IMG/VR virus record: IMGVR_UViG_2648501437_000024
Span: 1 to 8,652 of that record
Length of the DNA: 8,652 bases
From: a virus
Lineage: Duplodnaviria; Heunggongvirae; Uroviricota; Caudoviricetes
Reading direction: 5' to 3' (one strand)
The stretch's first letter is position 1. Each line of letters opens with the position of its first letter. This document shows positions 4,395 through 5,314 of this stretch, piece by piece. The position numbers and the translations under genes are program-made. Under the pieces are notes generated by a model. That model was not told the DNA's origin, ran no database searches, and saw only the letters and a list, made by a program, of their open reading frames with translations.

Positions 4395-4470
4395 ACAGCG
4401 TTGAGCGGTCTGGTTTATGTTAGCGGAGTCTTAATCGAGTTGTTTAAAAGGCCAAACCGCTCAACGCTGT
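4395..4470 (-). repeat. 15-bp perfect inverted repeat (ACAGCGTTGAGCGGT ... ACCGCTCAACGCTGT) with 46-nt loop; candidate structured RNA element
   Basis: Read directly; begins 3 nt after the CCA end of tRNA-Ser and lies inside the presumed tRNA transcript upstream of the terminators. Confidence 0.6.
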
Positions 4471-4473
4471 GTC

Positions 4474-4560
4474 TGGCGGAGAGTAATGGAATCGAACCAT
4501 CATCGCTTGCGCAATGGGACGGCTTTCAAGACCGCTTGAGCACCATGCTCCCTACTCTCC
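4474..4560 (-). tRNA. tRNA-Ser (anticodon UGA), class II, CCA encoded
   Basis: Hand-folded: acceptor GGAGAGT/ACTCTCC, discriminator G, anticodon arm GCGGT-CUUGAAA-GCCGU, long variable arm, T-arm GATGG-TTCGATT-CCATT, 3-bp D-stem. Irregularities: A at position 8 and wobble pairs in the anticodon stem. Confidence 0.6.
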
Positions 4561-4773
4561 AATTGTTGTGGTGCCGGGTGCTTCCCGGTGTCCTTTGGCT
4601 GGTTATCCACCGTGGACGGAGCCAATAGTCATCACAAAGGATCAATATAACCATTTCCCCGCGTGCGCTTAGCCGCATTCACCACAACGAAAAGAGCACT
4701 GTATGACGTTTGCACGGACTTACGCTTCAAACAGGGCAGTCTCGGCGGTTCTCAATGCTCTTTCCTGTTGTGT

Positions 4774-4849
4774 TGGTGCCGGTTAACGGATTCGAACCGC
4801 TGACATCCTGCTTACAAGGCAGGTGCTCTACCAACTGAGCTAAACCGGC
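4774..4849 (-). tRNA. tRNA-Thr (anticodon UGU), CCA encoded
   Basis: Hand-folded cloverleaf: acceptor GCCGGTT/AACCGGC, D-arm GCTC-AGTTGGTA-GAGC, anticodon arm CCTGC-CTTGTAA-GCAGG, T-arm AGCGG-TTCGAAT-CCGTT, discriminator A, CCA. Confidence 0.8.
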
Positions 4850-4851
4850 AT

Positions 4852-4926
4852 TGGCGATGGTGGGTGGATTCGAACCACCGACCAGTTGGTTAACAGCCAA
4901 CTGCTCTACCGCTGAGCTACACCATC
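4852..4926 (-). tRNA. tRNA-Asn (anticodon GUU), CCA encoded
   Basis: Hand-folded cloverleaf with all stems perfect: acceptor GATGGTG/CACCATC, D-arm GCTC-AGCGGTA-GAGC, anticodon arm GTTGG-CTGTTAA-CCAAC, T-arm GGTGG-TTCGAAT-CCACC, discriminator G; 2 nt from tRNA-Thr. Confidence 0.85.
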
Positions 4927-5117
4927 AATTCGGCACTGCCAGTATTTATTACTCAACAGTGCCAATCGCGACGGTTTAGTTTCTGCCAGGAAACGCACCG
5001 CTACTTGCACTTTTCGTTAGTGCCAGACGCTTTCGACTTCGCTCAATAGTAGAAGGCAAAATCTTTAAGTAGATGATGTTTCTGAGGACAGCACCTACTT
5101 TGTAATTTATACAATGT

Positions 5118-5134
5118 GATGTATGGAATCATTT
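5118..5134 (-). repeat. copy 2 of the repeated motif (minus sense AAATGATTCCATACATC)
   Basis: 17-nt exact match to 6130-6146 and 14-nt exact match to 2873-2886; no Shine-Dalgarno upstream, and the ORF it opens is only 29 codons. Confidence 0.6.
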
Positions 5135-5192
5135 GTTGTGAAAACAGGCACCAATGGCAACAGTGGTTAAACCTACACAACAATCCTGTCTT

Positions 5193-5314
5193 CACAACGT
5201 TGAGGCCACTACTCCGATTGAATGTTTGCCCAACATGTTACATATCAACGCTCGCCGGTATCTCTGTGAATAGAACCTTAGAATTGATAAAAATGTAATG
5301 GCCTCAACGTTGTG
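5193..5314. repeat. 16-bp perfect inverted repeat (CACAACGTTGAGGCCA ... TGGCCTCAACGTTGTG) flanking 90 bp
   Basis: Read directly (5193-5208 and 5299-5314); the arms share the core ACA-R-CGTTGAG with the 15-bp inverted repeat at 4395-4470. Confidence 0.6.

Follow-up and report, generated by a model that had tools for sequence, protein, structure and literature searches.

Structured elements for processing or stability, and RNAs derived from spacers, are an already known kind of feature in the transfer RNA (tRNA) operons of phages. The RNase III stems of the T7 early sites, of the site upstream of the T4 tRNA cluster and of 16S/23S are helices of about two turns (20-23 bp), found in multi-gene precursors of stable RNAs and at product boundaries, lacking the U-tract of a terminator and kept in the stem while the loop is free to change. 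The species 1 and species 2 RNAs of the T4 tRNA cluster are structured non-tRNA RNAs lying among phage tRNA genes in the same orientation, and the 3′ETS-leuZ-type small RNAs (sRNAs) of Escherichia coli, of about 50 nucleotides (nt), start after the last tRNA and comprise an unpaired stretch and an intrinsic terminator with a U-tail. At the DNA level, integron attC sites are imperfect to perfect palindromes of 57-141 nt that stand 3′ of each cassette, carry AAC...GTT at their outer ends and belong to arrays that vary between close relatives. Here we analyze two long inverted repeats, IR1 and IR2, associated with a tRNA array in an 8,652-nt stretch of viral DNA (IMG/VR record IMGVR_UViG_2648501437_000024, positions 1 to 8,652; hereafter the window, meaning the whole stretch). 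We propose, with a probability that we put at roughly 0.55, that they act as RNA and not as DNA sites, forming the closing stems (about 20 bp) of structured domains that would serve as double-stranded processing or stabilization signals of a tRNA precursor.

IR1 and IR2 share with the RNase III stems the helix length, the lack of a U-tract and the stem kept beside a variable loop, and like them would lie at product boundaries in a precursor of stable RNAs; they differ in being local hairpins instead of long-range stems drawn around a product. Their ends are conserved as CACARC and GYUGUG, which RNase III does not need, and CACAAC partners lie on both sides of each GUUGUG, providing alternative closing helices. 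The likeness to the T4 species 1 and 2 RNAs is one of description, and the present hairpins, as putative stable RNAs, differ in forming a multi-copy paralogous family in temperate phage-plasmids. The literature searched (for the arm sequences, STnc100, the tRNAs of SSU5 phage-plasmids and P1 transcriptomes) holds no description of these hairpins, and the hairpin family, its conserved ends, its alternative closing helices and the shuffled modular interior of the locus appear undescribed.

Geometry and folding of the two hairpins

Judged by its sequence, the window derives from an E. coli phage-plasmid of SSU5-like type, the region of interest being 97-99% identical to phage-plasmids such as plasmid pAMPD01 (NZ_CP058309.1) and phage Cyrano. 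The tRNA genes lie on the minus strand, which also carries the adjoining replication genes (DNA ligase, primase, DnaB-like helicase and small open reading frames, ORFs) and an intrinsic terminator; positions 4294-5704, about 1.4 kb without translated genes and densely structured, are therefore read as an untranslated stretch running from right to left.

A previous sequence-only reading had described IR1 as a 15-bp perfect repeat starting 3 nt after the CCA end of tRNA-Ser. The repeat is real and does adjoin the CCA; its perfect arms, however, measure 16 bp (4394-4409/4456-4471), extending to 20 bp with one non-Watson-Crick position, and the gap to the CCA, read from the sequence, is 2 nt. IR2 proved to be exactly as claimed, with 16-bp perfect arms (5193-5208/5299-5314) and a 90-nt spacer; its stem comprises the 16 perfect pairs, one U·G and 3 further pairs, and its end lies 266 nt upstream of tRNA-Asn. 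In both stems the odd position forms a G·U wobble when the minus strand is read, as against a C·A mismatch in the plus strand. Read as minus-strand RNA, both hairpins reach the length of about two helical turns (at least about 20 bp) that characterizes RNase III sites, with 20 bp in IR1, 20-23 bp in IR2 and one G·U in each.

That the arms belong to one family and are not chance hairpins is borne out by a 12-nt core, CACARCGTTGAG, common to IR1 and IR2 and confined to their four arms in the near-identical 110-kb pAMPD01, and by shuffling: in 300 dinucleotide-preserving shuffles of the window no local inverted repeat of 15-mers arose, against 4 seeds observed. In pAMPD01 the two repeats tie as the longest perfect local inverted repeat, and among the repeats of that maximal length only they have a long spacer. 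The minus-strand fold of IR1 has an energy of -37.5 kcal/mol (z = -7.75 against shuffled sequences) and that of IR2 an energy of -49.7 kcal/mol (z = -4.5), the loop of the latter containing a conserved inner 5-bp hairpin, AUGUU-GGGCA-AACAU, with a G-rich loop. Both were considered as intrinsic terminators and rejected, for no U-tract follows either of them (IR1 runs on into AUAGACAA and IR2 into AAGACAGG), and a terminator scan returned only the terminator listed in Table 1.

Conserved pairing in relatives and in a wider hairpin family

Homologs of the hairpins occur in phages SSU5, P1, P7 and D6 and in plasmids from Klebsiella, Cronobacter, Citrobacter, Enterobacter and Yersinia pestis, orthologs of IR2 being known from SSU5 and from the plasmids of all five of these bacteria. 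The sequence-only reading had held that its proposal would fall if the repeats existed in this genome only; they do not, IR1 and IR2 having orthologs in SSU5-like plasmids and the family extending to P1-like phages. A scan of species-representative genomes with the arm pattern yielded true homologs only in Buttiauxella and Kluyvera, and most of its matches, in Nostoc, Ralstonia, Thermoanaerobaculia and others (loci L105-L156), were set aside as coincidental and unrelated, consisting of 21-nt tandem repeats with a 12-bp palindrome, CTCAACGTTGAG.

Family hairpins start between -2 and +2 nt from the CCA of a tRNA or from the end of another module, and abutment on a CCA is seen in the window, in Klebsiella, Citrobacter and Cronobacter, and in P1, P7 and D6. 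Among 81 viral contigs extracted with the IR2 arm pattern, those of SSU5-like type with a tRNA nearby have 216-274 nt between IR2 and the array downstream of it, the first tRNA being tRNA-Asn in all of them but one; 6 contigs have no tRNA nearby. The exception, an IMG/VR contig (L086), carries a tRNA-His by ARAGORN in the place of tRNA-Asn. In P1-like contigs the homologous hairpin stands between tRNA-Thr and tRNA-Ser. A pG8786/pMT1-type plasmid of Y. pestis (L014, 2003-2277) keeps the leader hairpins and IR2 and has no tRNAs; in this plague plasmid the IR2 3′ arm is followed, at a distance of a few bases, by caf1R of the F1 capsule locus.

The comparison of orthologs also answered positively the check for compensatory changes that had been suggested, for IR1, for IR2 and for the stems of the family. 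Across 20 distinct IR2 orthologs, 98.4% of stem cells are paired, as against 25-56% when the 3′ partner is slid, and double changes are present at 3 pairs. Pair 13 is GC in 12 orthologs and AU in 8, while pair 14 is CG in 14, UG in 5 and UA in 1, tracing a path from C-G through U·G to U-A. In the IR1 orthologs both partners have changed at two pairs, one going from UA to CG and the other from GC to AU, and the U·G at stem position 17 is conserved. The loops diverge in length (58-82 nt for IR2 and 33-43 nt for IR1) and in sequence while the stems stay, the spacing between the IR2 arms ranging over 58-98 bp among relatives. In the IR2 orthologs G·U wobbles are spread over four stem positions, every time on the tRNA-sense strand; the only A·C among them lies in the 3′ arm of Y. 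pestis pMT1, where the tRNA array has been lost.

The two repeats were first said to flank the tRNA array, and they do, IR1 lying downstream and IR2 upstream of it; a third member of the family (H3) sits inside the array, however, and there is a distant fourth paralog (I3). These two members, the close abutment on CCA ends and the presence of the family in P1-like phages had been overlooked. The family signature is a stem of about 20 bp that opens with CACARC and closes with GYUGUG. The stem of H3 is made up of CACAAC, a bulged A, 13 bp (two of them G·U) and a GUUGUG end, and the module recurs in related contigs. I3 has its homolog in the leader hairpin of P1, P7 and D6, the first 13 nt of which are in common with Thr-type hairpins, and it is through this chain of similarity that I3 is provisionally included in the family.

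Eighteen members were aligned over 20 nt of each arm, joined by an artificial linker and with the bulged A removed in four. Both-side changes occur at 13 of the 20 pairs; 97.2% of cells are paired, as against 80.5% when shuffled and 34-53% when slid, a percentage that is partly due to construction because the stems had been preselected as hairpins. The informative point of this alignment is the concerted change among sequences with an obviously common consensus. A symmetric count of non-Watson-Crick pairs over the family gives 52 G·U against 30 A·C, many of the latter coming from one recurrent site at stem position 7/8. This count replaces a previous, biased one of 62 against 7, inflated because the stems had been extended allowing G·U, and the strand argument therefore rests mainly on the orthologs of IR1 and IR2. 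The bias of wobbles toward the sense strand is clear for these two repeats and only moderate over the family.

Two observations on arm sequences may be added here. The 3′ arms of H3 (4689-4706, minus strand) and of many Thr-type hairpins (L004, L006, L037 and L095) contain UGCUCUU(U/A), buried in the helix. In pAMPD01, two more long hairpins (52775-52835 and 101070-101136) have a common arm, (G)CCTG(T)TTCTGTATATAT, and may constitute a second hairpin family.

Other RNA structures of the region are linked to the family through the same terminal hexamers (Table 1). The RNAalifold consensus of hairpin H2b over 9 orthologs shows strong covariation, both partners having changed at several pairs. 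H2b opens with the six bases (GUUGUG) that end the 3′ arm of IR2, so that the IR2 and H2b helices compete for this hexamer or stack on it. The GUUGUG of H3 likewise also pairs with CACCACAAC (4573-4565), closing the X module, whose end is 4 nt away from tRNA-Ser. To either side of every GUUGUG there is a CACAAC with which it can pair, making alternative closing helices possible. Counted on either strand, the hexamer CACAAC is present in 11 copies in the window, where 4.3 would be expected, and 7 of them fall within 4565-5314, against about 0.4 expected. At the leader hairpin listed first in Table 1, SSU5 has a different, still self-complementary sequence.

The X module resembles described sRNAs. 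A match to the Rfam family STnc100 (RF02076) at 4706-4522 covers the full length of the model with 44.8 bits (E = 2.6e-07), without reaching the gathering score of 47, and core matches are found in P7 (43.0 bits) and P1 (33.4 bits). STnc100 and PasD are prophage-borne sRNAs (bioRxiv 10.64898/2026.05.13.724894). The module between H3 and tRNA-Ser fits the full-length model, and differs from these sRNAs in scoring below threshold, in having no terminator of its own and in being set between a hairpin and a tRNA; the likeness concerns the X module and not IR1 or IR2. Permissive Rfam scans (E up to 1) gave no match over IR1, IR2, H3 or I3 in the window, and over the window and the P1, P7, Klebsiella and SSU5 loci Rfam returned only tRNAs, sub-threshold STnc100 and weak, chance-level matches. 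One of these, to mir-142 on the strand opposite a mid-array hairpin of P1, was taken as chance, since it scored 25.4 bits (E = 0.36) where the gathering score is 57.

Table 1. Features of the tRNA region, in order along the minus strand (window coordinates)
Feature	Position	Strand	Description
Leader hairpin	5499-5476	minus	GGAGGGAACA with UGUUCCCUCC; from sequence and relatives
I3, distant fourth paralog	5469-5391	minus	20-bp stem, GUAACAGAAUGGGCGGUCGG with CUGACCGCCCAUCCUGUUAC, one A·C; 39-nt loop
Small conserved hairpin	5335-5316	minus	GGCUGG...CCAGC; directly 5′ of IR2; one pair changed from GC to AU on both sides
IR2 hairpin	5193-5314	minus	20-bp stem (5314-5295 with 5212-5193); 82-nt loop
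H2b hairpin	5198-5135	minus	GUUGUGAAGACAGG with CCUGUUUUCACAAC; ends in CACAAC
AAATGATTCCATACATC motif copies	5113-5134, 6125-6146, 2853-2885	minus (copy at 5134-5113)	Motif repeat search
tRNA-Asn (GUU)	4926-4852	minus	ARAGORN and Rfam
tRNA-Thr (UGU)	4849-4774	minus	ARAGORN and Rfam
H3, third family member	4772-4683	minus	Starts 1 nt past the CCA of tRNA-Thr
X module	4688-4565	minus	Closed by GUUGUGGUG (4688-4680) with CACCACAAC (4573-4565); multi-branched fold
tRNA-Ser (UGA)	4560-4474	minus	ARAGORN and Rfam
3′ trailer unit	4473-4296	minus	IR1, unpaired stretch, small hairpin with U-run, terminator
IR1 hairpin	4394-4471	minus	20-bp stem (4471-4452 with 4413-4394); 38-nt loop
Intrinsic terminator	4317-4298	minus	GGGGCUUCGGCCCC, then U-run; terminator scan

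Proposed processing or stability stems and the alternatives

The hairpins have the orientation of the flanking genes, the tRNAs and the terminator, and their wobbles fall on that strand. Conservation of pairing with free loops, wobbles on the sense strand and a co-oriented position bounded by a terminator together argue for selection on RNA structure, in the sense of the tRNAs. Of the candidates originally listed, those acting at the RNA level (stable RNAs like those of T4 and RNase III-type sites) are favored by the compensatory changes, the sense-strand wobbles and the co-oriented context.

Under the reading that we prefer, the region would be transcribed as a single precursor, leading from the replication cluster through the leader, tRNA-Asn, tRNA-Thr, the STnc100-like module and tRNA-Ser to the terminator. 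The usual RNase E cut in the maturation of E. coli tRNAs falls downstream of the tRNA, in single-stranded RNA. Here a two-turn helix begins 0-2 nt past the CCA and leaves no single-stranded room for RNase E, from which we infer that the helix itself is the processing signal. An RNase III-type cut inside the stem, or a cut at its base, would free the 3′ end of the tRNA and the neighboring RNA. RNase III would be the obvious enzyme for a helix of this length, with RNase P cleavage at the base of the stem as an alternative. The hairpins thus probably separate the tRNAs from the modules that resemble small RNAs and guide the cutting of the transcript. IR1 would become the 5′ stem-loop of a 3′ trailer RNA bearing the terminator, and IR2 would bound a leader RNA, structured, some 120 nt long and conserved in features of its apical part; discrete RNA products would be expected to accumulate, and the hairpins may be kept as stabilizing ends of these two freed RNAs.

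The trailer that IR1 would head runs from the 3′ end of the last tRNA to the terminator of the operon, as do sRNAs of the 3′ETS type, includes a conserved unpaired stretch at 4393-4365, AUAGACAAUUACGGCAGACGUUCUUAACC, and is kept as a block in relatives, following whichever tRNA is last (Asn or Ser). About 178 nt long, it is regarded here as a candidate sRNA that would derive from the 3′ external spacer, with an architecture that recalls spacer-derived sRNAs of the Hfq type. It shares with 3′ETS-leuZ-type sRNAs the start after the last tRNA, the unpaired stretch and the terminator with its U-tail, and differs from them in its greater length and its 20-bp 5′ hairpin, and in being a prediction from sequence.

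Besides the preselection of the family stems, the family-wide G·U and A·C counts and the moderate strength of the wobble bias beyond IR1 and IR2, several points weigh against this reading. The outer 12 bp of IR2 are nearly invariant across genera, more than pairing demands, which hints at sequence-specific recognition; a simple RNase III model leaves unexplained both this invariance and the dual CACAAC partners of each GUUGUG. An RNA-seq survey of the sRNAs of Y. pestis pMT1 reported none at the locus, sR082 and sR083 mapping elsewhere on the plasmid. A simple scan of 4250-5760 for sigma-70 promoters gave none. Downstream of IR2 lies one copy of a 17-nt motif, AAATGATTCCATACATC, that is present 5 times in the 110-kb plasmid, once as an inverted pair just upstream of the integrase gene; this copy (5134-5113) is followed by an extended -10-like sequence, TGTATAAAT (5134-5104, minus strand). 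The two elements are candidates for a repressor operator and promoter of the tRNA array, recalling the C1 operators at Pban in P1, where the C1-controlled Pban is located upstream of the tRNAs. If a repressor-controlled promoter at 5134-5104 is real, IR2 lies upstream of it and is reached only by read-through from the operon of the replication genes, and IR2 and the tRNAs may belong to separate primary transcripts.

Unlikely, though deserving of serious attention, is the alternative that the hairpins are small RNAs in their own right, which would work in trans by regulating, by serving as decoys or by binding proteins, the long stem being mainly a handle for stabilization or protein binding and not a signal for cleavage, in the manner of the T4 species 1 and 2 RNAs or of Y-like RNAs. 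Such a role would give meaning to the near-invariant outer 12 bp of IR2 and to conserved elements in the loops: in the IR2 loop UGUnGGG is invariant and the inner 5-bp hairpin is retained, Klebsiella showing a compensatory change in it; AAGACUCCGC is present in the IR1 loop of 5 orthologs out of 6; and some members in P1 and P7 have a T-arm-like GGGUUCGAAUCCC or GGGUUCAUAUCCC in their loops. The loops are nevertheless for the most part poorly conserved and variable in length, none of the hairpins matches an Rfam family at E up to 1, the Y RNA-like YrlA included, and the constant abutment on CCA ends argues for a role in cis. Stand-alone function and precursor processing are compatible with each other.

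The next two alternatives take as their starting point the variability of the interior of the array. The spacer between tRNA-Thr and tRNA-Ser (4561-4773 of the window, minus strand) measures 195-493 nt and occurs in at least 8 configurations in E. coli contigs with identical or nearly identical IR2. It consists of hairpin modules alternating with X modules like STnc100/PasD, with joints at CACAAC/GTTGTG (loci L020-L099). Among 5426 E. coli genomes only 8 have exactly the spacer of the window, the flanking parts being common, and in phage Cyrano only ACACAATT separates the two tRNAs, H3 and X having been lost by a deletion between two CACAA(C) repeats. The tRNA content of relatives varies as well, from Asn alone to Asn-Ser, Asn-Thr-Ser and Asn-Tyr-Thr-Ser. 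In the Asn-Ser spacer of one IMG/VR contig (L090) there is a tRNA-Thr-like gene that keeps its acceptor, D and T arms and has an insert of about 75 nt in place of the anticodon arm; such a gene may stand midway between tRNAs and tRNA-like small RNAs.

It is conceivable, if doubtful, that the hairpins and the STnc100-like X modules constitute a cassette system of non-coding RNAs, in which the CACAAC/GUUGUG joints serve both for cutting the transcript and, at the DNA level, for swapping modules between the unrelated P1-like and SSU5-like lineages. The joints would then release tRNA genes and tRNA-mimicking or regulatory small-RNA modules from the transcript, and an arms race against host defenses that target tRNAs or other RNAs would produce the hypervariability.

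More doubtful still is the notion that the hairpins are DNA-level recombination joints for tRNA and small-RNA cassettes, acting as folded single strands or cruciforms through their CACAAC/GTTGTG ends, loosely in the manner of attC. The hypervariable spacer with its joints, the Cyrano deletion, the varying tRNA content and the local enrichment of CACAAC (7 of the 11 copies in 4565-5314) would all fit, as would a tyrosine recombinase gene 1.6 kb away. In attC the R″ and R′ core sites follow the consensus RYYYAAC and GTTRRRY, and the hairpin ends, (A)CACAAC and GTTGTG(A), agree with its AAC/GTT triplets but not with its flanking pattern of purines and pyrimidines. Identity with integron attC sites was rejected, the 20-bp helices of IR1 and IR2 being unbroken by bulges and without the extrahelical bases or the unpaired central spacer that define such sites; the cassettes are moreover RNA genes, the better-folding strand is the sense strand, and IntI and attI are not in evidence, the 367-aa product of the nearby recombinase gene having a generic Phage_integrase domain assigned, with no examination aimed at IntI-specific features. 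Equally at odds with recombination joints are the P1-like phages P1, P7 and D6, which share the hairpins with no integrase adjacent to them, and the constant positions of IR1 and IR2, variation being restricted to the interior. The shuffling is explained with no need of a dedicated site-specific system, either by short direct repeats together with selection that keeps the joints functional or by ordinary recombination when P1-like and SSU5-like plasmids reside in one host.

We consider it improbable that the hairpins are cis-acting transcription elements, comparable to put, nut or rrn antitermination signals or to anti-Rho elements, by which RNA polymerase would cross the untranslated region. 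The length of that region (4294-5704) and its dense structure would call for such elements, and the UGCUCUU(U/A) that H3 and many Thr-type relatives have in their 3′ arms resembles the boxA of rrn operons and of lambda nut sites. IR1 and IR2, however, carry GCUCAAC or CCUCAAC in place of a boxA-like sequence; NusB/NusE bind boxA as a single strand, and the boxA-like stretch sits inside a 20-bp helix; and IR1 lies past the last tRNA and about 75 nt before the terminator, where antitermination would have no obvious use.

Terminal inverted repeats of a miniature transposon, or half-sites for a protein binding duplex DNA, can be dismissed as very improbable, for although the long perfect arms, the 12-nt common core and the tyrosine recombinase and helix-turn-helix regulator encoded nearby might suggest them, the core is absent elsewhere in the 110-kb plasmid, no target-site duplication (flanks CCAGCA/AAGACA for IR2 and GCCAGA/ATAGAC for IR1), dispersed copy in that plasmid or empty site was found, the site of IR2 is constant in the SSU5-like relatives examined, AAATGATTCCATACATC is a better operator candidate in the genome, and the arms, about 33-98 bp apart (33-43 nt in IR1, 58-98 bp in IR2), change in concert between relatives and so serve pairing instead of a fixed recognition sequence.

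Neighboring genes and significance of the locus

Several annotations and conserved sequences around the hairpins deserve mention in their own right. The ORFs predicted over the hairpins (window 4386-4628 and 5116-5298, both plus strand, and CYRAN_40 of phage Cyrano) were taken as spurious, because they overlap tRNA genes or span loops that differ among relatives by lengths that are not multiples of three. CYRAN_40 overlaps tRNA-Ser and IR1. In phage P1 (L006, 2661-3230) the predicted ORFs upl and plp lie opposite the tRNA strand, over family hairpins and tRNA-Thr; they too may be spurious, since P7 and D6 carry other modules in that region.

Further upstream, a leader stretch of about 110 nt within 5500-5660 (minus strand; CUGGCAGUAGCCUAAUAAGCCAAACACCAGCGAGGUCAGUUUCCAGCCUCG...) is conserved far above its surroundings, with some 3 differences between the E. 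coli element and Salmonella phage SSU5. In the annotation of P1 the corresponding position bears a 'dicF-like region', but the Rfam model of DicF matches neither sequence. Two intergenic regions (5675-5696 and 3278-3299) contain a second repeated near-palindrome, GATAAGTA...TACTTATC; its copy at 5675-5696 is identical in E. coli and SSU5 and may be another regulatory site.

Directly downstream of the tRNA array, a 302-aa ORF (3385-4293, plus strand) lies in a block of about 30% GC in a genome of about 45% GC. Its product has a sole match, to phrog_35492 (unknown function), and none in Pfam or PADLOC. Relatives have an AbiGi-family gene (Klebsiella) or a YafO toxin gene (another E. coli plasmid) at the same spot, which suggests a variable hotspot of accessory genes.

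Phage-plasmids of the SSU5-like and P1-like groups are widespread, occurring in E. coli, Klebsiella, Salmonella (pHCM2) and Yersinia pestis (pMT1), and their tRNA region has so far been annotated as bare tRNA genes or overlaid with doubtful ORFs. The present analysis indicates instead a locus of dense, conserved non-coding structure, with a recurring hairpin family and a hypervariable interior, and argues for an Rfam-type family for the hairpins and for removal of the spurious ORF calls that overlap them. It puts forward a testable model for the maturation of tRNA and small-RNA precursors that offer no single-stranded spacer past the CCA, together with testable candidates for an sRNA of the 3′ trailer and for a hotspot of exchange between two lineages of phage-plasmids.

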